From contig CAZCKO010000004.1 in assembly GCA_964499275.1 (NCBI GenBank), forward strand, positions 13,418-77,417: a stretch of 64,000 nucleotides of DNA, in the 5' to 3' direction. A program made the position numbers and the translations under genes. The stretch comes from an uncultured Rhodospirillaceae bacterium. GTDB taxonomy: Bacteria; Pseudomonadota; Alphaproteobacteria; MPNO01; UBA2964. The notes beneath the pieces are model-generated. The model did not search any database. It had not been told where the DNA came from and was given only the letters and a program-made list of their open reading frames with translations. This document shows, one piece after another, positions 5,218 through 26,591 of this stretch. Numbering within the stretch: the first letter of the stretch is position 1; every line of letters begins with the position of its first letter.

Positions 5218-5232
5218 TAGTCGTCGGGCGGA

Positions 5233-5697
5233 TTACCCGCGACCACGATAAGATGGTACATCTTGATCAGGTATCCAGAGTCCTGATGGTGGGGTGCCAC
5301 TTTGATAAAATACATCGATTGGTATTCCACCGCGCGGGTACCAATATCCACCAATACGTAGCCACTTTGGCGAAAGTAATTCCTCCAACTTTTTTCCTAT
5401 CCCGACGGTACAATCCTCGTGAAAGGCGCCGTGGTTCCGATATGAGCCAAGGTAGAGTTTCAAGGACTTGCTTTCGATGATCCAATCAGTAGGTGCATAA
5501 TCTATGATCAAGTGAGCAAAATCGGGTTGTCCGGTAATGGGACAAAGACTCGTGAATTCTGGGCAGGTGAAACGAATGAGATAGGTCTGACCAATTTGAG
5601 GGTTACCAACTCGTTCAAGCGTGGCTTGTTCAGGAGAAGCAGGCAGTGGAGTAGCATTTCCCAGTTGGGTTAGTATTTCGTCTTTGGTCTTTGTCAT
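5233..5697 (-). CDS. queF: NADPH-dependent 7-cyano-7-deazaguanine reductase QueF (type I)
   Basis: 154 aa. Carries the QueF motif [15 protein letters not shown] and the conserved Cys in [12 protein letters not shown]. Confidence 0.85.
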
Positions 5698-5713
5698 GAA
5701 AACTATCCATCCC

Positions 5714-7989: not shown

Positions 7990-8889
7990 ATGCCTAAAAT
8001 TAAATCTAGATTGGCGGTATTATTTGCGCCGCTACCTGATAGTGCCAAGGGCATTGGCCTTATGCTTGGCTCTGCTGCCTCAATTTCCGGGGCAAATGGG
8101 ACCGTACAATATCTTTCACAGGGTATCCATGTTTTTGAAATAGCGTTTTTTCGGCAACTTCTTGGCCTAATTCTAATGTCTGCGCTTTTCTTGCGGGGTG
8201 GATTACGGCCATTGTTTACGAAGAAAATTTGGTTACACATTTTACGCTCGATTTTGAATGTCGTGGCGATGCTAGCTTTTTTTTATGGTTTAAGCCTTGA
8301 ACCCTTGGCGAAGGTTGTGTCTTTAGGGCTTACCGCGCCGCTATTTGCGACATTAGGTGCTGTCATTTTTCTGCGTGAGAAAATGACAGCACATCGTTGG
8401 GTTGCACTAATTATCGGAGCCATTGGCGCTTTAATAATTCTTAGACCGGGTTTGCAGGTTGTCTCCCTTGGAGCTCTTATGGTCCTAATGTCAAATATGC
8501 TGTGGGCGATAGCTTTAGTGGTAATAAAAATTCTGACCCGTACTGATACATCGGTTACTGTGGCACTCTATGCCAGCCTGCTTCAGGCCCCAATTGCATT
8601 TATATTTGCTATATTTGTTTGGCAATGGCCGTCCATCGAACAGATTGGCTGGATGGTAATGGTGGCAATTTTAGGAACAATTTCACAATTAGCTCTAACT
8701 GAGTCCTTTCGCCATGCAGACGCCACACTGGTTCTGCCCGCAGATTTTACTAAGGTAATTTGGGCAAGTTTAATTGGATATTTTTTCTTTAACCAAGTTC
8801 CGGAAATCTGGGTAGGGCTGGGTGCTATCGTAATTTGCTCAGCCGTTTTTTATAATACCTATTCTGGTCCCCATAGTTCTTCTCCATAA
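7990..8889 (+). CDS. EamA/DMT family transporter
   Basis: Hydrophobic 10-TM protein with EamA repeat signatures (..IILRPG.., C-terminal ..PEIWVGLGAIVI..). Divergent from queA. The true start may be an internal Met. Confidence 0.7.
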   Translation: MPKIKSRLAVLFAPLPDSAKGIGLMLGSAASISGANGTVQYLSQGIHVFEIAFFRQLLGLILMSALFLRGGLRPLFTKKIWLHILRSILNVVAMLAFFYGLSLEPLAKVVSLGLTAPLFATLGAVIFLREKMTAHRWVALIIGAIGALIILRPGLQVVSLGALMVLMSNMLWAIALVVIKILTRTDTSVTVALYASLLQAPIAFIFAIFVWQWPSIEQIGWMVMVAILGTISQLALTESFRHADATLVLPADFTKVIWASLIGYFFFNQVPEIWVGLGAIVICSAVFYNTYSGPHSSSP

Positions 8890-11008: not shown

Positions 11009-12457
11009 CTAGCGATCTGTTCGGAAACGCCAACCCCAAGTTACAGCGCGTAAGCAGCAAAGCGCAGAAAGCATGGGAATGATAGCTGAGAAACCCAAAA
11101 CCCAGGCCGCAACTTGGTAAATTGTTTGTTTTGAAGTTCCCTGATCTAGCCCAGCGCTATTAGCAACAAGACCAGCTGCTGCGGCGCCGAAAGCTACACC
11201 CAGGGATCGAATTGTTGGCATCGATGCTGCAGTAATCGCCTCTTCGCCCTTACGTGCAACACTCATCCCATAATTAGTCATTAGGACATTTGTTGCTCCT
11301 ATTCCAAGCCCTATTAATGCACTCCAAACTGTAACCATTACGATGGTTCCAGAGAGAATTGAGAAGGTAAAGGCAATGGTCGTAACGGCTGCAAATAACA
11401 TTCCGATAAATGACCCGCTGCGTTCCCAAAAACCGGACCATCCAGATGCAACGACCGACCCTATAGTCCAGCCTATCGAAAATGTTAAAGACAAGTACCC
11501 TAATAGTAATGGAGTAATATTGTGTAGGACTTGCAAAAATAGGGGTGTAAAGATCAGCAAGGTTGTATGGGTAACAGATATTAGAAAATATGACCAATAG
11601 GCCAAACCAACAGGTGACAAAAAGGATAACGCGAAACTGGGGAAGAGTTTTGTTTGGGAGATACCGTCTCTACGAAATGTTAGCCATACTAGCAAGATCG
11701 CTAGCAAGATAAGCCCTGTACTGATCAATGGCATTTGATATTGATTGGTGAGCCCAGCAGCCAATACTCCAGCCGCTAACATTAATAACCGACGCCAGGG
11801 AAAACGCTTTTCATCTTGTTTTCCTCCCTGGTTTGGTACTAATTTCCAGGCCATAACAATAAAAGCAATAACAACGGGGGCCTGTGCCCAAAAGGCGCCA
11901 CGCCAGGACTCAAGTTCCGCAAAAACTCCCCCTATCCCCGGACCAAATAGGGCAGCAACACTCCAAGTCGTAGAAATGGCGGCCAGAATACGTGTTCGAA
12001 TTTTGGGTGAGTAAAAATCACGGACCAGTGCCATAGATTGTGAAATTACGAGGCCACCACCGATCCCTTTAATTGCTCGACCGGCTAATAAGGTCATCAT
12101 GTCAGGTGGAATAGCACATGCAATTGTGCCTAAAAGTAGGGTCATGCCTCCCCAAACATAGCCTCGCCGAGTACCTAACCTGTCACGAAGGTAACCACCT
12201 GCAGAGGCTCCAACGATTGTTCCGACCATGTAGAGCATCGAGGTCCAGGCATAATAGGTGATACCACCTATATCGTTTACGACCGTTGGCATGATTGTCG
12301 TAATAATAAAAATATCTATTGCATGGAGAGCGATCCCGAGATTGAGCAAAATCGTGTAAAGTCCTCGGCCTTCGCGAAATAGGTCAAGCCAATTGGCTTT
12401 ACTCTCTAACATTTCTGGTTTGTTAAACTTTTTTTTACTAGACGGATCGTCAATCAT
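11009..12457 (-). CDS. MFS transporter (14-TM, DHA2-like)
   Basis: 482 aa polytopic protein with MFS signature-like loops (..GYLRDRLGTRRG.., ..LVRDFY..). Confidence 0.7.
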   Translation of the reverse strand: MIDDPSSKKKFNKPEMLESKANWLDLFREGRGLYTILLNLGIALHAIDIFIITTIMPTVVNDIGGITYYAWTSMLYMVGTIVGASAGGYLRDRLGTRRGYVWGGMTLLLGTIACAIPPDMMTLLAGRAIKGIGGGLVISQSMALVRDFYSPKIRTRILAAISTTWSVAALFGPGIGGVFAELESWRGAFWAQAPVVIAFIVMAWKLVPNQGGKQDEKRFPWRRLLMLAAGVLAAGLTNQYQMPLISTGLILLAILLVWLTFRRDGISQTKLFPSFALSFLSPVGLAYWSYFLISVTHTTLLIFTPLFLQVLHNITPLLLGYLSLTFSIGWTIGSVVASGWSGFWERSGSFIGMLFAAVTTIAFTFSILSGTIVMVTVWSALIGLGIGATNVLMTNYGMSVARKGEEAITAASMPTIRSLGVAFGAAAAGLVANSAGLDQGTSKQTIYQVAAWVLGFSAIIPMLSALCCLRAVTWGWRFRTDR

Positions 12458-12534
12458 TGAAGCAGTCTATGCTTGGTATTCAGTTTGGCCAAGTGCACAG
12501 TGCATTCGGTAAAAATGCTGTTTAAAATATATTT

Positions 12535-13569
12535 ATGATAAAATTAAGTGTTTTAGATCAGTCTCCCATTAGAACAGACGCTACTCCGGCGGACGCTGTA
12601 GCAGATACTTTATATCTTGCAGAGAAGGTGGACCAGTTGGGCTACAATCGTTATTGGCTGGCGGAACATCATAGTAGCAAGGGTTTGGCTGGCGCCGCTC
12701 CAGAAATTTTAATTCCGCAAGTGGCAGGTAGGACACAGGGCATTCGCGTTGGCTCAGGCGGAATAATGCTGAGTCACTATAGCCCACTAAAGGTCGCTGA
12801 AGCTTTTAGGACAATAGAAACCCTTTACCCTGGGCGTATAGATTTAGGAATTGGGCGCGCTCCCGGAAGTGACCAAATAACTGATCAGGCGTTACAAACT
12901 GGACCGGGAGCCCTCGGAGCGGAACACTACCCTGTTCAGGTTAGAGACTTGATGGGTTATTTGGCAGGTGAGCTTCCCAAAGACCATCCATTCGTCGGTG
13001 TAAAGGCAATGCCGGCGGGGCCAACGGTTCCGGATATTTGGATGTTAGGTTCAAGTGACCAAAGCGCTTCACTTGCCTCTTACTTTGGTGTGCCTTTCTC
13101 TTTTGCTCATTTTATTGTTGCAGAGGGCGGGCCACAGGCTGTGACATCATATCGAAAGAATTTTAGATCGTCGGGGACTTGGGCAAAGCCTATCGTTAAT
13201 ATAGGAGTGTTTGCTATAGCGGCAGACACCGAAGAAGAGGCAGAGCGCTTGATGAAATGCCGAGATCTTTCCTCAGTCCGCCAACGCACTGGTCGTGCTG
13301 GTCCGGTGCCATCATTTCTAGAAGCAGAAGCTTATGAATACTCATCCCAAGAAGAAGCATTAAGGCGATACAATCGCCAAAGGTGTGTATGGGGTACAAA
13401 AGAACAGGTGAGGGATGGACTTCTGGCCTTGGGGAAAACCTATGATGTGGATGAGTTTGTAATACTCACAATTTGTCCTACTCTAGAAACACGTTGTCGT
13501 TCCTACGAGTTGCTCGCCGAGGCTTTTGAACTTACTCCACGCCATGTTAGGGCTACAGCCGCCGAATAA
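12535..13569 (+). CDS. LLM-class (luciferase-like) flavin-dependent oxidoreductase
   Basis: MIKLSVLDQSPI...YNRYWLAEHH N-terminus typical of MsnO8/LLM family monooxygenases. 344 aa. Confidence 0.8.
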   Translation: MIKLSVLDQSPIRTDATPADAVADTLYLAEKVDQLGYNRYWLAEHHSSKGLAGAAPEILIPQVAGRTQGIRVGSGGIMLSHYSPLKVAEAFRTIETLYPGRIDLGIGRAPGSDQITDQALQTGPGALGAEHYPVQVRDLMGYLAGELPKDHPFVGVKAMPAGPTVPDIWMLGSSDQSASLASYFGVPFSFAHFIVAEGGPQAVTSYRKNFRSSGTWAKPIVNIGVFAIAADTEEEAERLMKCRDLSSVRQRTGRAGPVPSFLEAEAYEYSSQEEALRRYNRQRCVWGTKEQVRDGLLALGKTYDVDEFVILTICPTLETRCRSYELLAEAFELTPRHVRATAAE

Positions 13570-13759
13570 GATTATTTCAAATTAGTATCCTTAAATAGGT
13601 GGCGATTTAAAAAATATATCGGCAAGATTACCGAGCAAACCCGTAATAATAGGAGGGTTAGATTAGTAGATTCAGATGTTATTAGTCCCTATAAATGATT
13701 GTTTATTTTTATTACAAACCTCGATCATAAAATCAGCTAGAACTAATTGAGGAATAAGT

Positions 13760-14653
13760 TTGAAACCAAACCGTCCTATCGCCGGCATTCTATGGATGTG
13801 TTTGGCAATGTTACTCAGTGCGGCGGCCGGTGCCTGTGTACGACAGCTAAACGCAGCCATACCAACATTGGAGTTAGTATTTTTTCGAAATGTTGTTGGT
13901 TTGTTGATTTTTGTGCCATGGCTCTTGCGCCAAGGGCTCGGCGTTATGCATACAAATCGCTTGCCTTTATATTCTTTGCGGGTGTTTTTTGCATACACTG
14001 CCATGGTTTTGCTCTTTTTCGCATGGGGTGAAATGCCAATTGCCGATGTATTCGCGTTACAGTTTACAATCCCATTATTCACCATTGTGCTTGCTGTTCT
14101 AATCTTAAAACAACAGACGGATCGGCAAGCCTGGGTAGCTTGTTTTATTGGTTTTGCAGGTGCTTTGATCGTAATGCGGCCTGGCGTAATTGAGCTCACA
14201 TTGGCTTCTGCAGCTGCCATTGCGTCTGCGATGATGTCTGGAGGGTCTAACACAACATTAAAACTACTTACCAAAACAGAGAGTGTTGGAACAATCACAG
14301 TTTATTCCAACTTATTAATGTTACCCTTGGCGTTGATCCCTACATTTTTTGTATGGGTTAGCCCAACATTTGTACAACTCCAGTGGGTAATTGCTGCCGC
14401 TTTTTTTAGTGCTGTTGGTGGTTTATGTTTTACATTGGCTGTTGGTTCGGCAGATGCACGTGTAGTGCAACCATTTCAATTTACAAGAATGATTTTCGCA
14501 GCAGCAATTGGTTACTGGATGTTTTTTGAATTACCTGATACGTGGACCTGGATTGGTGCTGCAGTGATTTTTGCCGCTTCCTATTACATAGTGTTACGAG
14601 AAGCAAATAATAAAAACACTAATACTATATCGAATGGATCCCCCAACCAATGA
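13760..14653 (+). CDS. EamA/DMT transporter, array member 1 (TTG start)
   Basis: 10-TM protein. Carries the array-wide motifs ..RPG.., ADARVVQPFQFTRM and FFELPDTWTWIGAAVIF. GAGGAA RBS before TTG. Confidence 0.8.
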   Translation: MKPNRPIAGILWMCLAMLLSAAAGACVRQLNAAIPTLELVFFRNVVGLLIFVPWLLRQGLGVMHTNRLPLYSLRVFFAYTAMVLLFFAWGEMPIADVFALQFTIPLFTIVLAVLILKQQTDRQAWVACFIGFAGALIVMRPGVIELTLASAAAIASAMMSGGSNTTLKLLTKTESVGTITVYSNLLMLPLALIPTFFVWVSPTFVQLQWVIAAAFFSAVGGLCFTLAVGSADARVVQPFQFTRMIFAAAIGYWMFFELPDTWTWIGAAVIFAASYYIVLREANNKNTNTISNGSPNQ

Positions 14654-15534
14654 CATCAATCATATTTTCAAATTCGGTTGTCCGCGGAGCTTTATGGATG
14701 GTGTTCGCCACAGGGTTCCAGGCAACGGCGAGTGGTTTTGTCCGGAGACTTTCCAACGACTTTAGTGTCTTCGAGCTTGTATTTTTTTTCAGCAGTATTA
14801 GTGCGGTTTTACTTATTCCTTTTGCTATGACATTACCAAAGGGATCCTTGAGAGGGATAAAGAAGCGGTCAGGGCTTTATCTTATTCGGGGATTATTATC
14901 ATTTTGCGGCATGCTTGCATCTTTTTATGCGTATTCGGTGATGGATATTGCTAACGTGCAGGCACTATTATTTACGGTACCGCTATTCACTATCCTTCTT
15001 GCTGGAATTTTATTGGGAGAATTTGTTGGTCTACGAGGCTGGTTATCATGCGCTATTGGATTTTTGGGAGCCATAATAATAGTACGCCCCGGCGTTATTC
15101 CTGTTAACCCTGGTGCACTTGCGGCACTCGTATCCGCTTTTGCATTTGCAGCAGCTAATATAGCTATTAAGAAGCTAGGTACAACCGAGAGTCCGATCGT
15201 CATTACCATGGTATCTAACATGATAGTGGTACCCTTGTCCGCTATACCAGCCGCTTTAAATTGGGTTACCCCTACCTGGGGTCAGGTACCATGGATACTT
15301 ACGATGGGTGTTCTATTCATGGGAGCGATGGTTTGCTTGTCTTTTTCAATTAGAGAGGCGGATGCCCGAATTGTACAAACGATCAACTTTCTTCGGATGC
15401 CATGGTCGGTCTTGGTAGGGTATTTGATGTTCACTGAATTACCAGACATTTGGACCTGGTTAGGAGCAATTATTATCTTTATCGGTGCATATGACGTTCT
15501 GCGCCGTGAAGCCAATACAAAAAGCGAAGAATGA
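14650..15534 (+). CDS. EamA/DMT transporter, array member 2
   Basis: ATGA overlap with member 1. Motifs ADARIVQTINFLRMP and FTELPDIWTWLGAIIIF. Confidence 0.85.
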   Translation: MTSIIFSNSVVRGALWMVFATGFQATASGFVRRLSNDFSVFELVFFFSSISAVLLIPFAMTLPKGSLRGIKKRSGLYLIRGLLSFCGMLASFYAYSVMDIANVQALLFTVPLFTILLAGILLGEFVGLRGWLSCAIGFLGAIIIVRPGVIPVNPGALAALVSAFAFAAANIAIKKLGTTESPIVITMVSNMIVVPLSAIPAALNWVTPTWGQVPWILTMGVLFMGAMVCLSFSIREADARIVQTINFLRMPWSVLVGYLMFTELPDIWTWLGAIIIFIGAYDVLRREANTKSEE

Positions 15535-16421
15535 CTGATACCTCTGAGAACAATTCAGCTCGTCGTAAGGCAGCCATCTGGGGGATTACCTGGATGATTA
15601 TTGCTGCTGTCGGATATTCGTTAAATGCAGGTATCGTCAAACAGCTTTCATCAGACCTAAATACCCTAGAAATTGTCTTTTGGCGCTCACTTGTAGCAGT
15701 TGTCATCTTACTTCCTTTCTTTTATCGACATGTTTCTTCGGCTGGCCGAGAATCATTAAAAAATTGGCACTTGTTTTTATTGAGAGGTCTTTTTACCTAC
15801 CTCGGCATGGCGGCTACGTACTACGCCCTTGCGAATATTCCCATTGCAGAGGTTTATGCCCTGCAGTTTACCTTGCCCCTATTCATGATAATCGTCGCGG
15901 CAATATTTCTAGGCGAAAAAGCCGGTATCGGCAGTTTTTTTGCTTGTCTCGTTGGTTTAATTGGAACATTGATCATTCTCAGGCCCGGGTTTGAAACTGT
16001 TGGGTTGGCGACACTGGTCGCACTATCTTCTGCAGTATTTTACAGTATCACCAATGTATTTATTAAGATCCTGACGCGCACAGAAACCACCACGACAATT
16101 ACTATTTATGGTAATATTATCATGTTAGTTTTAGCCCTGCTTCCGTTGCTTTTTTCCTGGCGATGGCCACCTGTTCAGACAATTGTTTGGATAATAGTGT
16201 TAGGTGTATTCACCACTGGGGGTCAATGGGCTTTAACAAAGGCAATCGCAACCGCAGATGCCCGGGTCGTTTGGCCGTTCGATTTTCTACGTATGCCTTT
16301 CACTGCAGCTATTGGTTACGTGATGTTTGGGCAACTTCCCGGAATTTGGACCTGGGTTGGTGCGGTGGTCATCTTTGCTGCTGCTTATTACGTTATTCAT
16401 AAGGAGGCGACCTCTAAGTGA
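15531..16421 (+). CDS. EamA/DMT transporter, array member 3
   Basis: ATGA overlap with member 2. Motifs ADARVVWPFDFLRMP and FGQLPGIWTWVGAVVIF. Confidence 0.85.
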   Translation: MTDTSENNSARRKAAIWGITWMIIAAVGYSLNAGIVKQLSSDLNTLEIVFWRSLVAVVILLPFFYRHVSSAGRESLKNWHLFLLRGLFTYLGMAATYYALANIPIAEVYALQFTLPLFMIIVAAIFLGEKAGIGSFFACLVGLIGTLIILRPGFETVGLATLVALSSAVFYSITNVFIKILTRTETTTTITIYGNIIMLVLALLPLLFSWRWPPVQTIVWIIVLGVFTTGGQWALTKAIATADARVVWPFDFLRMPFTAAIGYVMFGQLPGIWTWVGAVVIFAAAYYVIHKEATSK

Positions 16422-17281
16422 CAGATGCCGTATACACTAATTCAATAAGGGGAGCCATCTGGATGTTGGCGGCGTCTCTTTGTTATGTTTCATCAGCGAC
16501 GCTTACGCGTTATTTGGCTGGCAGCTATCCGACATTCGAGTTGACCTTTTTGCGTTGTGTTTTTGGTGTGATGGTTCTTACGCCCTTAATTCTTCGGGGT
16601 GGAATAAATCAACTTAAGACCAAGGCATTTCCGCTCCATTGTTTAAGGACTTTAATTACCTATGTTGCGATCCTTCTGTGGTTTTACGCCACAGAGCATG
16701 TGCCTGTCGGTGATTTTTTTGCTATACAGTTTGTTTCTCCGCTTTTTACTATTGCTGTAGCGGCCCTCTTATTGCGTGAAAAAGTAGGAATCAAAAGCTG
16801 GTTAGCTGCCTTGGTCGGTTTCTTAGGGGTGATGGTTATAATTCGTCCGGGTTATATACCGGTGTCTCTAGGTATCACCGCGGCATTAGGAACGGCGGGA
16901 GCATACGCATTTGTGAATACTTGTATTAAAATTTTGTCGCGATACGACTCCCCTACCGTGATGACTTTTTATGTCAACGTCCTCATTTTGCCTTTGTCGG
17001 CTATTCCCGCTTATCTGACTTGGAAAACGCCGGAGGGAGAGGACTGGCCTATTCTGATTGGAGTGGCGCTTTTTGCTACCATGGCACAGTTTTGCGTGGC
17101 GTCGAGTATTTCACTCGCTGATGCACGTGTGGTCCAACCAATGAATTTTCTAAGAATGCCGATCGCAGCTGCAATGGGATTCATGGTGTTTGGTGAATTT
17201 CCAGATCTTTGGACTTGGTTTGGCGCTCTGATAATTTTTGGCGCAGCATGGTATGCGGTGCAGCAGGCGAAGAAAGTATGA
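16418..17281 (+). CDS. EamA/DMT transporter, array member 4 (GTG start)
   Basis: GTGA overlap with member 3. Motifs ADARVVQPMNFLRMP and FGEFPDLWTWFGALIIF. Confidence 0.85.
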   Translation: MTDAVYTNSIRGAIWMLAASLCYVSSATLTRYLAGSYPTFELTFLRCVFGVMVLTPLILRGGINQLKTKAFPLHCLRTLITYVAILLWFYATEHVPVGDFFAIQFVSPLFTIAVAALLLREKVGIKSWLAALVGFLGVMVIIRPGYIPVSLGITAALGTAGAYAFVNTCIKILSRYDSPTVMTFYVNVLILPLSAIPAYLTWKTPEGEDWPILIGVALFATMAQFCVASSISLADARVVQPMNFLRMPIAAAMGFMVFGEFPDLWTWFGALIIFGAAWYAVQQAKKV

Positions 17282-18156
17282 AGCCGATTTCAAGCCCTAT
17301 CCTTGGTTCCTTGTGGATGTTATCGAGTTGTATTTTTTACGCATGTTCTGCCTCTTTAGTACGAGAAGTGGGAGATACATATACACCATATCAAATGACC
17401 ATGATCCGTTCTTTCGTGGCCGTGGCGGTATTAGCGCCGGTTTATCTCAGGGAAGGCGGCAATCTCGTATTTATCCCGCAACGATTTTTCATGCACTTTT
17501 TGACGGGCGTCTTTACCTATCTAGGTATTGTATTTTGGTTTTTCGCGACTGCATCGATGCCCATAGCCGATTTCTTTGCCCTACAGTTTGTCACACCTCT
17601 TTTGACTATGGCTTTCGCAATCATCTTTTTACGCGAGCAATCCGATTTGAGAAGTTGGATAGCAGCTTTAATCGGTTTTTGTGGCGTACTGATAATACTT
17701 CGGCCCGGTATCATAGAAGTATCGTTTGCGGCAATAGCTGCACTCATCAGTGCATTATTTTATGCCAGTGACAATACAGTTATTAAATCTTTATCGCGTA
17801 ATGTCTCAGCAACGATGATTGTATATTATGCGCATCTTCTGATGATCCCCATTTCTTTGCCAATGGCAGCTCTTACATGGAAACAGCCCACTTTATATGA
17901 TTTTGGTGTTATCGTAGCAATTTGTTTATGTCTAACTATGGCATATCTCTCTGTTACAAAAGCGATCGCTTTGACTGTCGCACGAGTTGTTCAACCGGTA
18001 AATTTTATGAGGATGCCCATCGCTGCAGTATTTGGGTGGGTGTTGTTCAGTGAGTTTCCAGATCTCTGGACCTGGATCGGCGCCGTGGTGATATTTTGCG
18101 CAACGACATACGCAGTAAGGCGTGGTACTAGCTCGGAACGAACAGGAGACACATGA
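17278..18156 (+). CDS. EamA/DMT transporter, array member 5
   Basis: ATGA overlap with member 4; this start (MKPISS...) is preferred over the upstream in-frame M at 17209. Motifs ARVVQPVNFMRMP and FSEFPDLWTWIGAVVIF. Closest paralog of member 6. Confidence 0.85.
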   Translation: MKPISSPILGSLWMLSSCIFYACSASLVREVGDTYTPYQMTMIRSFVAVAVLAPVYLREGGNLVFIPQRFFMHFLTGVFTYLGIVFWFFATASMPIADFFALQFVTPLLTMAFAIIFLREQSDLRSWIAALIGFCGVLIILRPGIIEVSFAAIAALISALFYASDNTVIKSLSRNVSATMIVYYAHLLMIPISLPMAALTWKQPTLYDFGVIVAICLCLTMAYLSVTKAIALTVARVVQPVNFMRMPIAAVFGWVLFSEFPDLWTWIGAVVIFCATTYAVRRGTSSERTGDT

Positions 18157-19025
18157 AAAATCTTCCAATAGCAGTCCAGGGGGCGTTTTGGATGTCTGTC
18201 AGTGCGGTGTGCTATGTTGGCTCGGCCGTTTTAATCCGATTTATCGGGGAAACCTATTCTCCTTTTCTCCTGACATTTTTTCGATCTGTCATAGCAGTGA
18301 TCATACTCGCCCCAATGATCTTTAAGATTCGAGCGTCAACCCTTTGGCCCGAAAGGCCAGTCTCAGTTTTGATGACCGGTATTTTTTCTTATATTGGTAT
18401 ATTTTTATGGTTTTATGCAGCGGGACGGATGCCTGTTGCCGAGTTTTTTGCCCTTCAGTTTGCCACACCACTATTTACAATTGCCTTTGCGATCATATTT
18501 TTGCGAGAAAGGTCGGACCTTCCGAGTTGGCTCGCTACTCTTGTTGGATTTACTGGTGTTCTGATTGTCCTTCGACCAGGAATTATAGAAGTTTCCGTTG
18601 CAGCCGTTGCAGCGGTCTCCTGTGCGGCTAGTTACGCTAGTGTTAATACCTTGATTAAATCTCTTTCAAAGGCGGTTCCAACTACGGTCATTGTATTTTA
18701 TGCCAATTTCTTACTAGTACCCATTTCTCTTCCAATGGCGATTAAAGATTGGCAACTACCACATATGGTTGACTGGCCGACTATTATTGGTGCTGCAGTT
18801 TTATCGACGATTGGGTATGTAACGGTGTCAAAAGGAATAGCAATGGCGGCAGCCCGAGTGGTCCAACCTGTCAATTTTTTACGAATGCCTGTTGGTGCCG
18901 CGTTTGGCTGGGTTTTGTTTAATGAGTTTCCAGATATCTGGACGTGGATTGGTGCAATTGTCATATTTTGTGCAACGACGTACACCGTACACCGCGGTAC
19001 GGGAAACAATAAGGGAAGAAGATGA
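18153..19025 (+). CDS. EamA/DMT transporter, array member 6
   Basis: ATGA overlap with member 5. Motifs ARVVQPVNFLRMP and FNEFPDIWTWIGAIVIF. Confidence 0.85.
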   Translation: MKNLPIAVQGAFWMSVSAVCYVGSAVLIRFIGETYSPFLLTFFRSVIAVIILAPMIFKIRASTLWPERPVSVLMTGIFSYIGIFLWFYAAGRMPVAEFFALQFATPLFTIAFAIIFLRERSDLPSWLATLVGFTGVLIVLRPGIIEVSVAAVAAVSCAASYASVNTLIKSLSKAVPTTVIVFYANFLLVPISLPMAIKDWQLPHMVDWPTIIGAAVLSTIGYVTVSKGIAMAAARVVQPVNFLRMPVGAAFGWVLFNEFPDIWTWIGAIVIFCATTYTVHRGTGNNKGRR

Positions 19026-19723
19026 TCACCCTTCATTCTTGGCCGACGCCTAATGCCCACAAAGTTTCCATTATGCTGGAAGAATGTGGTTTGAATTACG
19101 AGGTTAAAGAAGTTGATATCACCGCTGGGGACCAGTTCGATTCGGAATTCCTGGAGCTTAGCCCAAATAATCGAATACCTGCCTTGGTTGACCAAGACGG
19201 ACCGGGTGGCAAATCTATTTCAGTTTTCGAATCGGGGGCAATCTTACTTTACCTGGCCGAAAAAACTGGGAAGTTTTTACCGGTCTCGGGTAAGTCCCGC
19301 TATGAAGTGATCCAGTGGCTGATGTTTCAAATGGCTAACGTCGGGCCTATTTGTGGTCAAGCCCATCATTTTCGAGATGCCGCTCTAGAACGCGTCCCAT
19401 ACGCTATAACTCGTTTTACTCTGGAAACGGCTCGCCTTTATAATGTCATGGATAGACAACTTTTCAGAACCCGTTTCCTTGCGGGTAAGGACTACACAAT
19501 AGCGGATATGGCCTGCTGGCCGTGGGTGCGGGTTCATCGCTTCCATGGCCAGTCATGGAATGACTTTCCTCATGTTAAACGTTGGTTTGATGAAATTACT
19601 TTGCGTCCCGCAGTGCAGCTAGGTATGGAACTTCTTGCTGACAAGCGGCGGAAACCCGAGGAGGTTTTGAATGAAAGGTCCCGTGATATTCTTTTCGGCC
19701 GCAGGCAAATGGAACGGCGCTAG
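19022..19723 (+). CDS. Glutathione S-transferase, Nu-class (YfcG/YghU-like)
   Basis: The N-terminal thioredoxin-like GST domain LHSWPTPNAHKV...IPALVD...VFESGAILLYLAEK and its C-terminal helical domain are typical of this class. The ATGA overlap with the last EamA gene indicates co-translation. Confidence 0.8.
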   Translation: MITLHSWPTPNAHKVSIMLEECGLNYEVKEVDITAGDQFDSEFLELSPNNRIPALVDQDGPGGKSISVFESGAILLYLAEKTGKFLPVSGKSRYEVIQWLMFQMANVGPICGQAHHFRDAALERVPYAITRFTLETARLYNVMDRQLFRTRFLAGKDYTIADMACWPWVRVHRFHGQSWNDFPHVKRWFDEITLRPAVQLGMELLADKRRKPEEVLNERSRDILFGRRQMERR

Positions 19724-19857
19724 CCTTTTGTCGATACCTAAATTAATTTCAATAAAAACTTTGTGGAGAGCTAGAGTTAAAATTCCCCTAAACCTTTTGT
19801 CCAAGATTAATGTTAAATGAAAAATAATCCGGATTTTAAAATTAAATGTTTTAACAA

Positions 19858-20358
19858 GTGATTTGTATGTTTCAGAAATTACCATTGGCGCTGCTGCCCA
19901 TTTTGATACTTTTGCTATTTATTAATCCAACACTCGCTGTAGAGGAAATTACAGCCGAAGAGGCATCTGCCAAATATAACGAGGCAGTCAGTCTTATAAA
20001 AAAGCATAAATATTCCGACGCAATAGAGTTGCTTAATGAAATAGTTGAAGCTGGTATCGATGACAAGGCTCAGCTGGCTGATGTCCTCAATATGCTTGGC
20101 TTTAGCTATCGTAAGAGTAATAAATTGAATCTTGCGATCGATAATTATAGTGAGGCTTTAAGACTAGACTCAAGTCATAAGGGTGCTAATGAGTATGTTG
20201 GTGAGGCCTATTTAGAAATGAATCAACCTCTTCTAGCCGTAAAACATTTAAAAATTTTACAAAAATTATGTGGTAAAAAATGTGTTGAATACCAGAATTT
20301 AAAAAAATCTTTCGATTTATTTTTACAAAATTCAGGGAAGAATACTGCTCAGTATTAA
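19858..20358 (+). CDS. Secreted tetratricopeptide (TPR) repeat protein
   Basis: N-terminal signal peptide (LPLALLPILILLLFINPTLA) followed by TPR-like helical repeats (..NYSEALRLDSSHKGANEYVGEAYLEM..). Confidence 0.6.
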   Translation: MICMFQKLPLALLPILILLLFINPTLAVEEITAEEASAKYNEAVSLIKKHKYSDAIELLNEIVEAGIDDKAQLADVLNMLGFSYRKSNKLNLAIDNYSEALRLDSSHKGANEYVGEAYLEMNQPLLAVKHLKILQKLCGKKCVEYQNLKKSFDLFLQNSGKNTAQY

Positions 20359-20408
20359 CAAGCTTTTAGTGCTTATTTATATAATGTTTGAATAAGTTTC
20401 CCGTCTCA

Positions 20409-21305
20409 TTATTCATCCGTGGCTTCTTTGGCTTCCTTTCGAACTGAAAAATAAGTGCTGGCGAAGATAACCAATGCACCTAGAAGGACCCATGGTGAGA
20501 ATGTTTCGCCCCAGAGAATATAGGCAATCAAAGCGATAAAGGGGAGACGAAGAAAATCGATAGGAAAACAGACAGATGTATCAATTAAGACTAACGCCTT
20601 GCTGAGACAAAAATGGGTTATAATCCCAGACGTCCCAAGGAGTAGAAGCCACGGTACATGATGCCATTGTGGCATTACCCAGAAATATACTGCGGGTCCC
20701 AAAAGAATGAGGCACTGAATCAAGTTCATGGTAAAGACCATTGTTCCAGCACTTTCAGTTTGGGACAGGACCTTGACCATTACATTTTGTGCCGAAAACA
20801 ATATTGCCCCCAAGATAACCATAAGGGTTGGTATGCTGATAGGTACAAAACCGGGACGAACAATTATTAATACACCTAAAAAACTTACCGTCATTCCAAT
20901 CCAGCGATAGAATTTAACCCGCTCGCCTATAGTCATTGCGGCGAAAGCAGCGGTTAGGGCAGGAATGGTATATTCGATTGAGGTAACGACAGCGAGTGGC
21001 ACAGATATGACGGCAAAAAAAACGCAGTATTGTGCACTCACATGGGTAACATTCCTGAGGATCTGAAAGGGTAACCGCTTAGTTAAAAGATTACTCAAAC
21101 CATACTTGGGAACCATGATTACAGAAATGGCAATTAAACCGATGATCGCTCTTAGAAAGAGTATTTCGGGGATGGTTATATCTGGCTTGAGAGCCCGGAC
21201 AGCAATGACAATTCCGGCAAGGCCGGTAACAGCGATTGACATCCAGGCCACACCACGAAGTGTTTCCGTGCGGGTTGCATTACCAGTAGTGTTTTGCTCC
21301 ATCAC
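20409..21305 (-). CDS. EamA/DMT family transporter
   Basis: 298 aa 10-TM protein with EamA repeat (..IIVRPG.., ..DFLRLPFIALIAYILWGE..). Confidence 0.75.
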   Translation of the reverse strand: MMEQNTTGNATRTETLRGVAWMSIAVTGLAGIVIAVRALKPDITIPEILFLRAIIGLIAISVIMVPKYGLSNLLTKRLPFQILRNVTHVSAQYCVFFAVISVPLAVVTSIEYTIPALTAAFAAMTIGERVKFYRWIGMTVSFLGVLIIVRPGFVPISIPTLMVILGAILFSAQNVMVKVLSQTESAGTMVFTMNLIQCLILLGPAVYFWVMPQWHHVPWLLLLGTSGIITHFCLSKALVLIDTSVCFPIDFLRLPFIALIAYILWGETFSPWVLLGALVIFASTYFSVRKEAKEATDE

Positions 21306-21401
21306 GAAAAGTACTCGCCAATCAATTAATGAAACTCGGATTTACAGAATATACTACGGAGCTTAACTTAGTGCGATAAACATAATTGGGGAGTTTCTTT
21401 A

Positions 21402-22895
21402 ATGGATGGCTCGCAGGCTGCAGGTCTTATTCACAAGGTCACATTCGGTGACCTTAGGGAATATATTGAGGAAGTTGAAAAGCTTGGAGAGTTGAGACGT
21501 GTTGAAGGCGCTACCTGGGAAGAGGATATCGGCCTTGCTGCGGAACTGCTTCTTCACAGTGAAACAGCACCCTGTGCACTCTTTGATGAAATACCGGGTT
21601 ATCCCAAGGGCCATCGGGTCTTCACTAATTTTTTTGGCGGACGCCGCCAAAATATTACCCTTGGTTTTCCTCCAAACCTTTCAAAATTTGAATTAAGCGT
21701 AGCCTTCAATAAGGCTTATCAATCGATTGTGCAAAATCCAATCCCTTATGAGACCGTAGAAACTGGGCCGGTAATGGAAAACATAATGGAAGGGGACGAT
21801 GTAGACGTGTTATCTTTCCCGACTCCCCTTTGGCATGAAGGGGACGGTGGCAGATATATTGGCACTGGATCCTTTAATGTTACCCGTGACCCTGAAGAAG
21901 ATTGGGTGAATGTTGGGACCTATCGCGTAATGGTTCATGATAAAAAAACCGTAGGATTCTATATTTCGCCTGGCAAGCATGGTCGGATTCACCGTCAAAA
22001 ATACATGTCAAAAAACCAACCCATGCCAGTTTGTGTTGTTGTTGGAATAGATCCGCTGAGTTTTCTTATGTCCTCTTCAGAAATTCCCTACGGAGTATGT
22101 GAATTTGACATAATGGGGGCGTATCGAGGCCGCCCTATTGAATGTGTAATTGGCAAGCACACTGGCCTGCCCTTCCCTGCAAATGCTGAGATTGTTCTCG
22201 AGGGGTTTTGCTATCCTGACAATCTTCACTCCGAGGGGCCTTTTGGAGAATGGACGGGTTACTATGGAAACCCCGAACATAATGGTCCGACTTTAGATAT
22301 TAAGGCAATTTATCATCGCAATAATCCAATAATGCTCGGTTGTCCGCCTCAGCGACCACCAGAAGAACAGTCCCGCTATCGTGCTGTAGTGAGGTCTGCT
22401 TTGTTGAAGGAACAAATTGAAGCAGTCGGCGTTCCAGATGTGCAGGTGGCGTGGTGCCATGAATGTGGTGGTGGGCGTATGTTTACAGCGGTATCTATTA
22501 AGCAACGGTATCCTGGCCATGCAACGCAGGCAGGTCAGATTGCCTCACAGTGCAGATTGGGGGCGTACGCTGGGAAGTTTGTAGTTGTGGTTGATGAAGA
22601 CATCGATGCATCCAATTTAGAGGATGTGATGTGGGCGCTTTGCTTCAGAGCAGATCCGGCCACTGATATTGATATAATACAAAGGGGTTGGTCGACCGGG
22701 CTGGATCCTTCTATTCACCCTGATCGTAAGGCGATTGGCGACACCACTAATAGCCGCGCTGTAATAAATGCTTGCAAACCCTTTCATTGGAAAGATAGAT
22801 ATCCGAAGGTCAATATGCCTGACCCCGAGACCTACGAGCGTGCCCAGCAAAGGTGGGGCTGGCTTCTAAACAGTAATGCACCCCCAGAAAAATAG
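21402..22895 (+). CDS. UbiD-family (prFMN-dependent) decarboxylase, paralog 1
   Basis: 497 aa with the UbiD-fold N-terminus ...WEEDIGLAAELL... and central ..GPFGEWTGYY... Clear paralog of 30673..32151. Confidence 0.8.
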   Translation: MDGSQAAGLIHKVTFGDLREYIEEVEKLGELRRVEGATWEEDIGLAAELLLHSETAPCALFDEIPGYPKGHRVFTNFFGGRRQNITLGFPPNLSKFELSVAFNKAYQSIVQNPIPYETVETGPVMENIMEGDDVDVLSFPTPLWHEGDGGRYIGTGSFNVTRDPEEDWVNVGTYRVMVHDKKTVGFYISPGKHGRIHRQKYMSKNQPMPVCVVVGIDPLSFLMSSSEIPYGVCEFDIMGAYRGRPIECVIGKHTGLPFPANAEIVLEGFCYPDNLHSEGPFGEWTGYYGNPEHNGPTLDIKAIYHRNNPIMLGCPPQRPPEEQSRYRAVVRSALLKEQIEAVGVPDVQVAWCHECGGGRMFTAVSIKQRYPGHATQAGQIASQCRLGAYAGKFVVVVDEDIDASNLEDVMWALCFRADPATDIDIIQRGWSTGLDPSIHPDRKAIGDTTNSRAVINACKPFHWKDRYPKVNMPDPETYERAQQRWGWLLNSNAPPEK

Positions 22896-22916: not shown

Positions 22917-23936
22917 TTATTCATTACCAGCGTGCTTGGCTTCGTGCCTCGTCATAACGTAGGTTGAGCCAGCGATGATAGCTGCGCCAACCCATACCCA
23001 GAAATCGGTTGTTTGATTAAATACGAGGTATGCTAAGCCAGCCGTGATGGGTAAACGTAGGTACTCGATTGGCTCAATGATTGTTGCTTCGGTATGTACA
23101 AAAGCCCTTACAAGACAATAGGGTGCTGCGGTTCCCGAGACGGCTAGGAGCAGTAGTGCAGGGATATCGGTGATTTGGGGTGTTACCCACCTGAACCAGG
23201 TAAGTGGCAACCCGAAGTCCGGGTAAGAATTAGCCAAAAACCATCCCAAATACATCGAAATAGCAGCAAAAACTGTCAATGTGAATTGGTAATAGAAAGT
23301 TGTTGTGGTTGGATGGTCTGTTTTTCCAAGAGACCGCGTATATATTGCAACCCCTGCATATGATAGGGCCGAACCAAGCACAAGAAACGCTGCTGGGCTC
23401 ATCGGCACCGCACCTGGGCGAAGAATAACGACGACGCCCGCAAAGCCGACCAGTGTACACCCTAAGCGTATAATACCAGGTCGTTCCCGCAAAAAGATAA
23501 CCGCCAAGACGACCACCATAAGTGGCACGGTGAAATGCAATGCGACGGCCTTTGCTATTGGAAGAAAGGCAAGGCCGGCAAACCATAACCACATGCCCGC
23601 AAAATTTGCCAAGTTACGTTGTATATGAAAGCCAAGACGGTTGGTTTGCCAAAATTGATTTCCCTGCCAGGAAATTATGCAGAGTAGTATCATAAGGCCA
23701 ATCAGGTTCCTAAAAAACACCAACTCAATAGCGGGAATATGATCTAATAAACGAACTGCAATGGGAACAAAGGAATGCGCTATTGCGGCAGCCAGTCCCC
23801 ATCCAGCGCCAATCAGGACTTGATTACCGGTTCTTCCGTGAGAGTTAACAGGGCCCATTAATAAAAACCATTGAAGTCTATTATCAAAAAAATGACCATC
23901 GCTATAATTATGAGACCACAGAGGCGAATGAGACAC
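22917..23936 (-). CDS. EamA/DMT family transporter
   Basis: 339 aa polytopic protein with EamA repeat (..VILRPG..). 8-nt gap to the upstream membrane-protein gene. Confidence 0.7.
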   Translation of the reverse strand: MSHSPLWSHNYSDGHFFDNRLQWFLLMGPVNSHGRTGNQVLIGAGWGLAAAIAHSFVPIAVRLLDHIPAIELVFFRNLIGLMILLCIISWQGNQFWQTNRLGFHIQRNLANFAGMWLWFAGLAFLPIAKAVALHFTVPLMVVVLAVIFLRERPGIIRLGCTLVGFAGVVVILRPGAVPMSPAAFLVLGSALSYAGVAIYTRSLGKTDHPTTTTFYYQFTLTVFAAISMYLGWFLANSYPDFGLPLTWFRWVTPQITDIPALLLLAVSGTAAPYCLVRAFVHTEATIIEPIEYLRLPITAGLAYLVFNQTTDFWVWVGAAIIAGSTYVMTRHEAKHAGNE

Positions 23937-23943
23937 CTCATGA

Positions 23944-25263
23944 TTAAGACATCATAAGGGGATTGATAATAGATAAAATTACAGCGCAAAAAGTGCCGCC
24001 TACGAATACATAAATGAAATTACTCCAACTGATCAGTCGCGTCATGGGAATTTCAAACATCGATGCTCCCGTTACAATAGAAAGACTACTAATTGATACA
24101 GCGGTACATAAACCCCAACCAGTTAATATTGCCTGCATAATGATAAGATCAGATACCCCGGTGGGAATACTTGTAAAGAGCACCAACAAGATGGTTCCCG
24201 AAACAATGGAGTGAATGGCCATGACGCCAGCAATATTCATGGCCATAATCAATATAAAGATAATCGCAGTGGCTGAAAGCTGGAGGCTCTGTAACCAATT
24301 TAATAGACCCATGTCTGGAAGAGCCTTTTCGAACACGCTACCGAGAACGGTGGCAAAAACTAAAATCGCGGTTTCCGGACCTATCCGTGGCAAACGTTGA
24401 ATAGTGGTTTTAAGAGCTGTGGGAATTGATCCGCCTGGCGAGAAAAAGACCGCTATCAGACATGGTATGGGTAAAGCCATAATTAGTGATTGCATTGTGG
24501 AAAATCCTGAAGCAATCGATGTGCCGATGACTAGCAGAGCAGCAATAGCTATAGGTGGGGCAATCGGGGCTAATGTCATGAGAGATTGCCATAAAGACTT
24601 AAGCCCTCCTTTGCGATCAAAACAGATAATAGATAGAACGATACAAAAAGAGGAAAGTGCCAGCCCCATTGATACGATCTGCCAGAGAGGCACCTTGGGC
24701 AAATATTGGCTGGCGATAGCCATTCCGACGACAAATGGAGACCACAAGGGTACCAGGGCCATACCCCGCATCGCTGCAATAAATACTTCGCGACGTTCAC
24801 TTTCCTTGGCGTTACGACCAAGTATTGGGGCCATAATTGCGAATACACTTACTTGCAGGATCGAGCCGATAAGAAAGCCACCAACGACTAATCCACTATC
24901 CCGTCTCTCTGGTTCAAGGGCGGTAAAGAGACTTCTGGCAGCAATAATTTCGGGCCGTTGCTCGGCTGTTGCTCTTAGGAGTAAAATGGTTGCTAGGAAG
25001 GTCGGAAAAATTATTGCGCGCCTTAAACCATCTTCGATTGCTCCCCACTGGTCATAAATTTGTGCCAATACCGCTGTTATTGTCACAAGAACAGAACACA
25101 GAATTTTCACGCTGCGGTTAGCTTGCGGTAAAGCACAAATGGTTGTGCACGCAAGGAGGCCGATTAATAAATCAAAGACATATGGTGTTGGAACGAGTAT
25201 TTGAATTAAGCCCAAGACCCAAAGGAGACCGAGTGTTATAAGGAGAATTCGGGTTAAAATCAA
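23944..25263 (-). CDS. Polytopic integral membrane protein of unknown function (putative permease)
   Basis: 439 aa with about 12 hydrophobic segments and no recognisable family motif. Co-oriented with and 8 nt upstream of an EamA gene. Confidence 0.5.
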   Translation of the reverse strand: MILTRILLITLGLLWVLGLIQILVPTPYVFDLLIGLLACTTICALPQANRSVKILCSVLVTITAVLAQIYDQWGAIEDGLRRAIIFPTFLATILLLRATAEQRPEIIAARSLFTALEPERRDSGLVVGGFLIGSILQVSVFAIMAPILGRNAKESERREVFIAAMRGMALVPLWSPFVVGMAIASQYLPKVPLWQIVSMGLALSSFCIVLSIICFDRKGGLKSLWQSLMTLAPIAPPIAIAALLVIGTSIASGFSTMQSLIMALPIPCLIAVFFSPGGSIPTALKTTIQRLPRIGPETAILVFATVLGSVFEKALPDMGLLNWLQSLQLSATAIIFILIMAMNIAGVMAIHSIVSGTILLVLFTSIPTGVSDLIIMQAILTGWGLCTAVSISSLSIVTGASMFEIPMTRLISWSNFIYVFVGGTFCAVILSIINPLMMS

Positions 25264-25358: not shown

Positions 25359-26552
25359 TTATAGTTCAGTTTTCTTTATCGAGAACAATCTGACTAATGG
25401 CAATAACAAGATACCCATAAAAGCCAACCCCGTCATTGCAATGAAAGAAAATCCGCCAAAGTTTTCGTAAAGCCAGCCTGACCCAAGCATCGCAAAGGCC
25501 ATAGTAGTTCCTACGGCGAAACTGGAATACAGGCTTTGCGCGGTTGCAGCAAATTCCGCTGGGACAGATTTTGCGATATAATAAAGAGCGGCTAAATGGG
25601 TGGCACCGAATGTAAAAGCGTGAAGCCATTGAATGCAAATCAGGTAAGTAATGTCTGTTGTTATACCAAGGATCGACCAGCGTAGAACGCCAGAAAGTCC
25701 TCCAATTGTCAAAAATATTATAGGCCCTATGCGGTCGATATATTTACCGGCTATTGCAAACAAGATAATCTCCGCGACAACCCCTTCAGCCCAAAGACCA
25801 CCAATCGTCACCTTATCAAGACCATTGGCACGCCAATGCAATGTAGAAAATCCATAATATACAGCGTGGCTAGCCTGTATCAGGCTTGCAGACATCATAA
25901 AGATGATAAGCCGCCCATTTCCTATTATGTTTAAAAAGGGTGCCAAAAACTTGTCAGTGCCCGGTGTTTTGGTTCTCGGAATTAAATGACAGATGGCAAC
26001 TGTCAACACCAAAAGTCCTATAACAAGCCACAAAATATAATCTGCCTTTTTACCCTGTAGAAAATACCCTCCTCCGATAGCGGCAACGATGAAGGTTAGC
26101 GATCCCCAGAGTCTCACTCTTCCGTAATCAATAGTCCCCGCACGAACCTTCAGCATGGTTACAGCATCTGCCATTGGCATCATGGCAAAGAGTAGAATCG
26201 AGGAACACACGCTAATTATAAAAAGGCTCCAAAATCCATCTGAAATAAAGAATAAAATATGTGTAATTAGGGCCCCCCAACCAAGTAGAATAATCATTAA
26301 GTCCGGGCGCCCATGCCGATCGGCACTTTGGGCGAGGAGAGGATTTAGAATAGCTCGGCTCCACGTTCCCACCGCAAGGATAAGACCAATTTCTATTGGG
26401 GTTATGCCTTTAGACTCTAGCCAAATGGGCCAAAATGGCATCACTATACCGATTACCGCAAAAATTGCGCCATAAATTAAGGAAATTCTAATTGCCATTA
26501 TCTTCAAGTGCCTATGAGATTGTCGCTGTGCAATGACGCCAACGTGGGACAT
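25359..26552 (-). CDS. MFS transporter, HcaT-like (3-phenylpropionate permease family)
   Basis: FWPIWLESKGITPIEIGLILAVGTWSRAILNPLLAQSADRHGRP closely parallels the HcaT/PPP-family signature. The true start may be the internal Met at about 26498. Confidence 0.6.
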   Translation of the reverse strand: MSHVGVIAQRQSHRHLKIMAIRISLIYGAIFAVIGIVMPFWPIWLESKGITPIEIGLILAVGTWSRAILNPLLAQSADRHGRPDLMIILLGWGALITHILFFISDGFWSLFIISVCSSILLFAMMPMADAVTMLKVRAGTIDYGRVRLWGSLTFIVAAIGGGYFLQGKKADYILWLVIGLLVLTVAICHLIPRTKTPGTDKFLAPFLNIIGNGRLIIFMMSASLIQASHAVYYGFSTLHWRANGLDKVTIGGLWAEGVVAEIILFAIAGKYIDRIGPIIFLTIGGLSGVLRWSILGITTDITYLICIQWLHAFTFGATHLAALYYIAKSVPAEFAATAQSLYSSFAVGTTMAFAMLGSGWLYENFGGFSFIAMTGLAFMGILLLPLVRLFSIKKTEL

Positions 26553-26591
26553 AATTGTCTTAATGTAAAACTAGATTCGGGGAGACCTAAA

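Follow-up and report, generated by a model that had tools for sequence, protein, structure and literature searches.

A series of one to six tandem EamA/DMT permease genes at one chromosomal site in marine Alphaproteobacteria

The 64-kb stretch of DNA analyzed here (the window; contig CAZCKO010000004.1, positions 13,418 to 77,417, from an uncultured Rhodospirillaceae bacterium) carries on its forward strand, at 13760-19723, six full-length genes for EamA/DMT permeases (287-297 aa) that lie head to tail and are followed by a gene for a YfcG-like, Nu-class glutathione S-transferase (GST). We named the permease genes E1 to E6 in their order; the GST gene is the seventh cistron. The list of open reading frames (ORFs) and a direct reading of the sequence agreed on this layout, and the seven overlapping cistrons described in a first-pass annotation of the same DNA were all recovered together with their overlaps. 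In our view the array is likely to be a battery of permeases that act independently, have diverged in specificity, and are co-transcribed and coupled in translation; it expanded in one lineage at a fixed chromosomal site. The battery probably serves small carboxylates.

Results

One chromosomal site holds one to six copies of the permease gene

We scanned species-representative genomes with an alignment of E4-E6 and their homologs, which gave 77 loci (designated L0xx), and annotated these with a hidden Markov model of the paralogs and with the neighboring proteins of the window. L079-L082 were reached by following homologs of the GST (68-71% identity) to their contigs. The same syntenic site holds one to six copies in more than 20 species-level metagenome-assembled genomes (MAGs) of marine Alphaproteobacteria, with the orthologs in the same order. 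Six copies are found in the window, L002, L004-6, L009, L020 and L021, and also in L074 when joined with L003; five in L007 and L008 (E2-E6) and in L011 (E1-E4 plus one E5/6-type gene); four in L012-14 and L079, with E3 missing from L012, L013 and L079; three in L015, L016, L018, L019, L022, L023 and L080; two in L031; and one, a single E1-type gene, in L081 and L082. In three-copy arrays E1 plus E4 are missing; the three genes of L080 look like E1, an E2/E3-like gene and an E4/5/6-like gene. L081 and L082 apparently represent the same site, because they have the MFS and luciferase-like oxidoreductase (LLM) genes upstream, and the reverse-strand EamA gene and UbiD downstream. Single-copy genes of both the E1 type and the E4 type exist (L025-30, L081). 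In L007 and L008, tblastn found no trace of E1 (about 5000-6500), though these arrays are otherwise of the six-copy type. The E1 gene of L010 (5608-6490) is frameshifted, for which decay or a long-read assembly error are possible explanations.

The surroundings of the array are conserved as well. A neighborhood of ~25 kb is collinear in ~20 of the 77 loci, in the order QueA, EamA_b, YgjP, DUF123, NAD-binding protein, MFS transporter, LLM oxidoreductase, array, GST, EamA_c (reverse strand), UbiD, EamA_d (reverse strand), a membrane protein without assignment, a second MFS transporter and a thiamine pyrophosphate (TPP) enzyme. A 12.9-kb JGI marine metagenome contig has the same gene order and is identical across E3 to GST. 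Homologs of E6 are labeled as Rhodospirillaceae or Alphaproteobacteria MAGs, and the array clade is one of marine pelagic Alphaproteobacteria with Rhodospirillales-like MAGs. Thus, the array is not unique to the window; it is a lineage-specific gene-family expansion and not a new kind of machine. The first-pass annotation had asked whether the array might be a common, already annotated feature of related genomes with a known function: it is common in relatives and generically annotated, but no function is attached to it.

A queuosine cluster lies upstream of this transporter-rich region (4078-7881 on the reverse strand: QueG, QueF, Tgt and QueA, the last two overlapping by 4 bp) and places the array in core chromosomal synteny. 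We considered a mobile element or a horizontally acquired island and rejected it, given the flat GC content (0.43-0.47) and a site embedded in conserved housekeeping synteny with the queuosine genes upstream.

The copies arose by serial duplication and are individually maintained

A neighbor-joining tree (100 bootstraps) included the array orthologs and the four other EamA genes of the window. The array genes were monophyletic (bootstrap 98) and the four other EamA genes fell outside. Within the array clade, the orthogroups E1, E2, E3, E4 and E5/6 were each recovered with a bootstrap of 100, in the shape ((E1,(E2,E3)),(E4,(E5,E6))); E3 is the sister of E2, E4 is sister to the E5/E6 clade (bootstrap 100), and the E1 group includes the single-copy genes. 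Pairwise amino acid identity among E1-E6 is 34-55%. The closest pair is E5/E6 at 54.9% (roughly 55-60% had been estimated by eye), and E4 is 46-47% identical to E5 and to E6. E5 was seen only in five- and six-copy genomes, which marks it as the youngest duplicate, and the tree bears out the earlier proposal that the genes were duplicated serially and that E5 and E6 separated last.

As judged from trees and synteny, these comparisons show that one subfamily of EamA/DMT secondary transporters with 10 transmembrane (TM) helices has expanded in tandem at a fixed chromosomal site, within one lineage and by vertical inheritance. The copy numbers fit a stepwise history (1, 3, 4-5 and 6 copies) in which one E1-type gene was multiplied by in-register tandem duplication, each duplication copying the ancestral 4-bp stop/start junction, and in which E1, E3 or E4 was later lost in some lineages. 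Related EamA genes were duplicated in tandem independently in L033, L040 and L069, so duplication is recurrent in this family.

At the DNA level, a repeat search found similarity between paralogs over only 128-194 nt at 63-72%, around the C-terminal motif. Because only this short similarity is left, the duplicates are old and are not being homogenized by recent gene conversion. The ratio dN/dS was 0.035-0.09 for all six genes against their L002 orthologs (dS 0.18-0.35; Table 1) and 0.03-0.12 in other genome pairs, values which indicate that purifying selection acts strongly on each of the six copies; E1 is 97% identical to its L002 ortholog. The possibility raised earlier, that some paralogs are pseudogenes, is at odds with these ratios and with the intact ORFs.

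The same data bear on the idea that the array is non-functional or an artefact, that is, a set of decaying duplicates, a misassembly of a repeated gene, or a row of mis-called starts. The source is a MAG, and E1 is frameshifted in L010 and absent from L007 and L008, as would suit such an explanation. Against it, every copy has intact ORFs and a low dN/dS; paralogs with 34-55% amino acid identity and such short DNA similarity are too diverged for collapse or expansion by an assembler; independent assemblies of more than 10 MAGs, as well as the JGI contig, contain this array; and the start positions are conserved. An artefact is very improbable and, on these comparisons, effectively refuted by the conservation data.

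Divergence between the paralogs is much larger than within them: identity is 79-87% within orthogroups versus 34-55% between paralogs. At 33 positions, mostly in TM1, TM3 and TM8, the residue is conserved within every orthogroup and at least three different residues occur between groups. Paralogs that diverged anciently, are individually conserved and differ at orthogroup-specific helix positions would most likely act together as a battery with a broader choice of small metabolites to transport.

Two motifs, ADARVVQP-NF(L/M)RMP and F-E(F/L)PD-WTW-GA--IF, had been put forward as specific to the array. Both are visible in the alignment, where E5 and E6 read xxARVVQP, not ADARVVQP, but they are not array-specific, because the single-copy E1-type genes in L026-L030 carry both; looser versions match 304 relatives in other genomes.

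Each array protein is predicted to be a complete permease

All six proteins contain two EamA (PF00892) repeats, with Pfam scores of 85-121 bits against a cutoff of 28.2. The AlphaFold2 model of E6 (pLDDT 88.4, pTM 0.86) has 10 TM helices and the complete DMT fold, and E1-E5 align colinearly with it. In the structural comparison of the E6 model, 5I20 (YddG), 7paf (LicB), 9i20 and 5y78 matched at a probability of 1.00 with TM-scores of 0.64-0.78, and the best fold matches in the PDB were YddG, SLC35B1, LicB and the triose-phosphate translocator. A profile search with the alignment of E4-E6 and their homologs against PDB sequences returned nothing at E <= 0.01. Since both EamA repeats and the full 10-helix fold are present, each gene would encode a complete transporter unit, and we infer that each array protein is a self-sufficient permease.

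The gene junctions point to coupled expression

Stop and start codons overlap by 4 bp at all six junctions of the array (Table 1), and the GTGA junction before E4 is kept in all six-copy loci. By contrast, a 4-bp overlap is possible in just 4 of the 26 other same-strand neighbor pairs of the window, which makes the overlaps a real local feature and not a general habit of the genome. Among approximately 100 EamA-EamA junctions in orthologous arrays, 83 have the same spacing (-4) and nine have a spacing of -1, while the surrounding nucleotides differ. A Shine-Dalgarno-like sequence is missing at most of these junctions. The GST gene has its own conserved GGAG-like Shine-Dalgarno site, and in the spacer upstream of E1, compared across six orthologous loci, AGGA plus the TTG start is the sole conserved block. 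The E5 ORF is open in the 5' direction as far as a TTG at 17209, and its orthologs start at the aligned position of 17278. The recurrence of the -4 junction despite differing flanks, together with the conserved AGGA and TTG of E1, shows that the starts are not mis-called; the overlaps are accordingly not the annotation artefact that had been considered as a weakness of the first-pass annotation.

Co-directional genes are most often spaced by overlaps of -4 and -1, on which termination-reinitiation coupling depends (PMC10666635), and all six junctions are co-directional overlaps of this kind. With no spacers between the genes and with most internal starts devoid of a Shine-Dalgarno sequence, E1-E6 and the GST gene would be co-transcribed as one transcript and translated by termination-reinitiation coupling, as their geometry indicates. 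The six junctions cannot be counted as separate events, since each duplication carries the junction along: when paralogs recombine unequally but in register, the junction is recreated, so its uniformity was inherited and did not evolve six times. The retention of -4 junctions over saturated synonymous divergence suggests selection for coupled expression.

Regulatory signals around the array are sparse. A consensus scan of 12400-21500 detected no convincing terminator after the GST gene and no internal promoter, and the aligned upstream spacers of the six orthologous loci contain no operator-like conserved element. No Rfam family reached its gathering score anywhere in the window (tRNAs were not scanned separately), so that no rRNA, riboswitch or known sRNA was detected. 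The region 5' of E1 gave just one chance match below threshold; hence, no riboswitch gives a clue to the substrate.

The GST is a conserved neighbor of the array

The closest structural relatives of the GST are 4l8e (E 1.6e-65), YfcG (3gx0, E 1.4e-61) and 5hfk (within 1e-61 to 1e-65), followed by NaGSTNu (5uun, E 5e-45) and YghU (3c8e, E 7e-44). Residues 8-11 read PTPN (Thr9, Asn11) and align with the PTPN of YfcG. In NaGSTNu, Thr51 and Asn53 activate the thiol of glutathione (PMC5892560). The domains, the closest PDB relatives and the PTPN motif agree with the Nu class to which the first-pass annotation had assigned the protein, which scores below the NCBIfam equivalog cutoffs of both YfcG (NF010579, 216.4 versus 332 bits) and YghU (NF008731, 192.5 versus 325 bits). 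In vitro, Nu-class enzymes act as disulfide reductases and glutathione lyases; what they do in the cell is for the most part not known (PMC5892560).

The position of the GST gene invites a thiol-linked pathway, in which the cargo of the permeases would be glutathione conjugates, disulfides or thiol-reactive metabolites, and the GST would process it after import or before export, as a glutathione lyase or disulfide reductase. In the window, L001-L010, L016, L020 and L021, the GST gene begins within or right next to the end of the last permease gene (-4, -1, -8 or +3 nt); the homologs at 68-71% identity on other contigs are likewise preceded by EamA arrays; and the protein has the catalytic Thr/Asn motif of a class with the appropriate in vitro chemistry. 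However, the GST gene overlaps E6 directly only in the six-copy genomes and L016. In L011-14, L017, L023 and L079-82 one or two other genes intervene between array and GST gene, namely a tartrate dehydrogenase gene and, in some loci, also a small ORF or one for a DUF1194 protein, and the three-copy arrays of L015, L018, L019 and L022 have no GST gene within 10 kb. The Shine-Dalgarno site of its own likewise speaks against such a pathway. Moreover, the GST belongs to a huge family (more than 7900 proteins at E <= 1e-40), most members of which have no link to transporters. Adjacency itself says little, because the whole neighborhood of ~25 kb is collinear. To our knowledge, no DMT protein carries glutathione conjugates. 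We therefore regard the thiol-linked pathway as unlikely. That the GST prepares or regenerates the cargo, as proposed earlier, is weakened by these observations and is possible but unsupported; for an exporter of glutathione conjugates or thiols we found no evidence, and the context points, if anything, to carboxylate uptake. The GST is not demonstrably part of the transport mechanism and may be a conserved, co-expressed neighbor with generic disulfide-reductase or glutathione-lyase chemistry.

Neighboring genes hint at carboxylates as substrates

Tartrate dehydrogenase (TtuC), identified by the equivalog model TIGR02089 (560 bits versus a cutoff of 470 for L011, 7336-8394), is encoded in L011-14, L017, L023 and L079-82, all relatives with one to five array copies. 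Single-copy E1-type genes (L026-L030, for example L028, 9986-14126) lie directly upstream of genes for an acyl-CoA ligase and a 4-bp-overlapping amidohydrolase; L028 also has a UbiD decarboxylase and a TctC-like binding protein nearby. In the window, a set of genes that resembles one for aromatic or organic acids occupies 21402-22895 (+), 25359-26552 (-), 26508-28328 (+), 28332-29132 (-), 29111-30664 (-) and 30673-32235 (-), and comprises two UbiD proteins, an HcaT-like MFS transporter, a PRK08327 TPP enzyme, a methyltransferase and an acyl-CoA ligase. The best models for the UbiD pair, the beta subunit of phenylphosphate carboxylase and VdcC, both score below cutoff, and the HcaT-like transporter reaches 253 bits versus a cutoff of 259. 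Taken together, TtuC beside the smaller arrays, the CoA ligase and amidohydrolase beside single copies, and UbiD with the HcaT-like transporter in the window tentatively favor small or aromatic carboxylates as substrates, taken up for catabolism in the cytoplasm rather than exported.

The LLM gene lies upstream of the array, at variable distance, in nearly all loci of the clade (it was not found there in L079 or L080). It is a context gene and only a candidate member of the unit.

Independent permeases or subunits of one transporter

Several observations weigh against the array being a coupled battery of independent carboxylate permeases. The promoter and terminator scan of 12400-21500 gave counts no better than those of shuffled sequences, which leaves the coupling to gene geometry. 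None of the paralogs reached the NCBIfam cutoff of a characterized DMT equivalog (YddG, RarD, TIGR00950 2A78 or phn_DUF6) that would speak for a substrate and a direction: TIGR00950 scored best with 52-79 bits versus a cutoff of 230, and the YddG model gave 20-28 versus 300. TtuC was found by tblastn neither in the window nor in any six-copy locus, and it is missing from most three-copy loci; the window thus has no ttu-like cluster with TtuC adjoining the transporter. The argument from neighboring genes is also weakened by the collinearity of the whole region. Moreover, the strict -4 coupling over saturated divergence is unexplained if the permeases are independent, and such overlaps are enriched among the genes for subunits of heteromeric complexes (PMC10666635). 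Finally, 33 positions are invariant across the paralogs, mostly in TM4, TM9, TM10 and the RPG loop, and TM5 is also among the most invariant helices. TM5 and TM10 form the dimer interface in some DMT proteins.

The last two of these points speak for a hetero-oligomeric transporter, in which DMT protomers in a fixed ratio, as co-translational heterodimers or a larger complex, would be the functional unit. The -4 overlaps at all junctions of the window and their conservation in orthologous arrays, a strictly conserved gene order, and the fact that several of the DMT structures among the fold matches were deposited with more than one chain are in line with it. The copy-number series, on the other hand, disfavors a fixed stoichiometry: one site holds one to six copies, odd numbers included, and E1 (L007, L008), E3 (L012, L013, L079) and E1 plus E4 (three-copy arrays) are dispensable. 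Single-copy E1-type and E4-type genes exist, each protein has both repeats and the 10-helix fold and thus a complete transport pathway, and inheritance through in-register duplication accounts for the overlaps. The stoichiometric hetero-oligomer suggested in the first-pass annotation has therefore lost ground, and we consider it quite improbable, while independent permeases with diverged specificity are the likelier explanation of the array.

Other features of the window

The features of the array and its immediate surroundings are collected in Table 1. The TPR gene downstream of the GST gene is not a conserved part of the unit, as it was found only in the closest relatives L002, L020 and L021. 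EamA_c lies outside the array clade in the tree and is syntenic in relatives. Ten genes of the EamA family are found between the start of the window and 24 kb; those that do not belong to the array, four in number (983-1918 (-), 7990-8889 (+), 20409-21305 (-) and 22917-23936 (-)) are of other subfamilies, with 26-32% identity to E1-E6, and are syntenic. A polytopic membrane protein of 439 aa (23944-25263 (-)) matched neither Pfam nor NCBIfam models at a threshold as loose as E <= 1. Its gene is syntenic across the clade (45-96% identity), and the protein may be a transporter of a kind not yet classified.

Two antisense ORFs, 13672-14298 (-) and 18698-19195 (-), were rejected as genes, since conserved genes for permeases or the GST cover them completely. 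At 14001-18000, where GC content is unremarkable (0.43-0.45), the AT skew takes strongly negative values (-0.19 to -0.23), which we ascribe to the coding strand being rich in T at codons of hydrophobic residues.

Table 1. Coordinates of the array genes and of adjoining features in the window, with dN/dS of the permease genes against L002
Feature	Position	Strand	Length and start or junction	Evidence	dN/dS
MsnO8-family luciferase-like oxidoreductase (LLM)	12535..13569	+	190 bp upstream of array	TIGR03558, 385 bits versus cutoff 167	
Shine-Dalgarno-like GAGGA	13749..13753	+	6 nt 5' of E1 TTG start	sequence read	
E1, EamA/DMT permease	13760..14653	+	297 aa; TTG start	PF00892 x2, 84.6 bits	0.07
E2, EamA/DMT permease	14650..15534	+	294 aa; ATGA overlap with E1	PF00892 x2, 98.3 bits	0.083
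E3, EamA/DMT permease	15531..16421	+	296 aa; ATGA overlap with E2	PF00892 x2, 117.4 bits	0.039
E4, EamA/DMT permease	16418..17281	+	287 aa; GTG start, GTGA overlap with E3	PF00892 x2, 121 bits	0.035
E5, EamA/DMT permease	17278..18156	+	292 aa; ATGA overlap with E4	PF00892 x2, 107.2 bits	0.056
E6, EamA/DMT permease	18153..19025	+	290 aa; ATGA overlap with E5	PF00892 x2, 110.1 bits	0.09
GST, Nu-class (YfcG-like)	19022..19723	+	233 aa; ATGA overlap with E6	GST_N + GST_C	
Small TPR protein, hydrophobic N-terminus	19858..20358	+	134 bp downstream of GST	TPR_1, TPR_2	
EamA_c, convergent paralog of other subfamily	20409..21305	-		PF00892, 75 bits; 26-30% identity to E1-E6	

Discussion

The present evidence reveals no new transport mechanism or pathway: the array consists of known families in an unusually long coupled arrangement. 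A search of the literature found no description of a tandem EamA array with a GST, in agreement with the first-pass annotation, which had not recognized the arrangement as a described system.

If the battery of independent permeases is real, the locus offers a clean natural series, in which a single syntenic site carries anything from one to six copies and the orthogroups are clear. Such a series would be useful for following how the specificity of secondary transporters diversifies after tandem duplication, how gene overlaps are inherited and maintained, and how pelagic marine heterotrophs come to use more substrates. It also supplies six related but distinct uncharacterized DMT proteins, with 33 candidate specificity positions, from a superfamily that is poorly deorphanized. 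A more far-reaching outcome seems doubtful to us, namely that the products of neighboring genes pair during translation through the invariant TM5 and TM10 into promiscuous or ordered heterodimers, so that a variable set of protomers would yield combinatorial specificity and the strict -4 coupling would be kept by selection for this reason, or that the array and the GST form an uptake route with deglutathionylation or disulfide reduction for thiol-linked dissolved organic matter. If one of these were true, bacterial DMT transporters would operate here in a way that is new for them.

Richness in EamA genes has been described in marine SAR11, which has many EamA paralogs (about 11 per Mb) that were read as broadening the transport repertoire (PMC11796062). 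These are dispersed core and flexible copies, and that study reports neither a six-gene overlapping tandem array nor a link to a GST. The GST itself aligns over residues 1-200 with E. coli YfcG (3gx0) and shares its PTPN motif, but differs in a C-terminal extension of 30 residues and in a start that overlaps a permease gene.

Among the permeases, the array proteins resemble YddG (5I20) and other 10-TM members of the DMT/DME group (EamA/YdeD, RhtA, YijE) in having two EamA repeats, ~290 aa and the 10-helix fold. YddG is the best fold match in the PDB to the E6 model (E 1.5e-07, TM-score 0.64), at an identity to the array proteins of only ~19%. The characterized YddG-type members that we know of are encoded by single genes, unlike the coupled array of six paralogs. 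The choline importer LicB (7paf, rank 3) has the same fold as E6 and shows that a bacterial DMT protein can import, the direction to which the catabolic gene context of the array points, but the array has no sequence-level relationship to LicB and no choline or lic genes nearby.

In gene arrangement, the closest parallel is given by the paired small multidrug resistance (SMR) proteins of the DMT superfamily (EbrAB, YdgEF/MdtIJ), which are adjacent, often overlapping, co-expressed paralogs. These are 4-TM half-transporters that need heterodimerization. The array departs from this obligately heteromeric type: its proteins are full-size, complete 10-TM units, individual paralogs are missing from some relatives, single-copy genes exist, and copy number varies from one to six between relatives.

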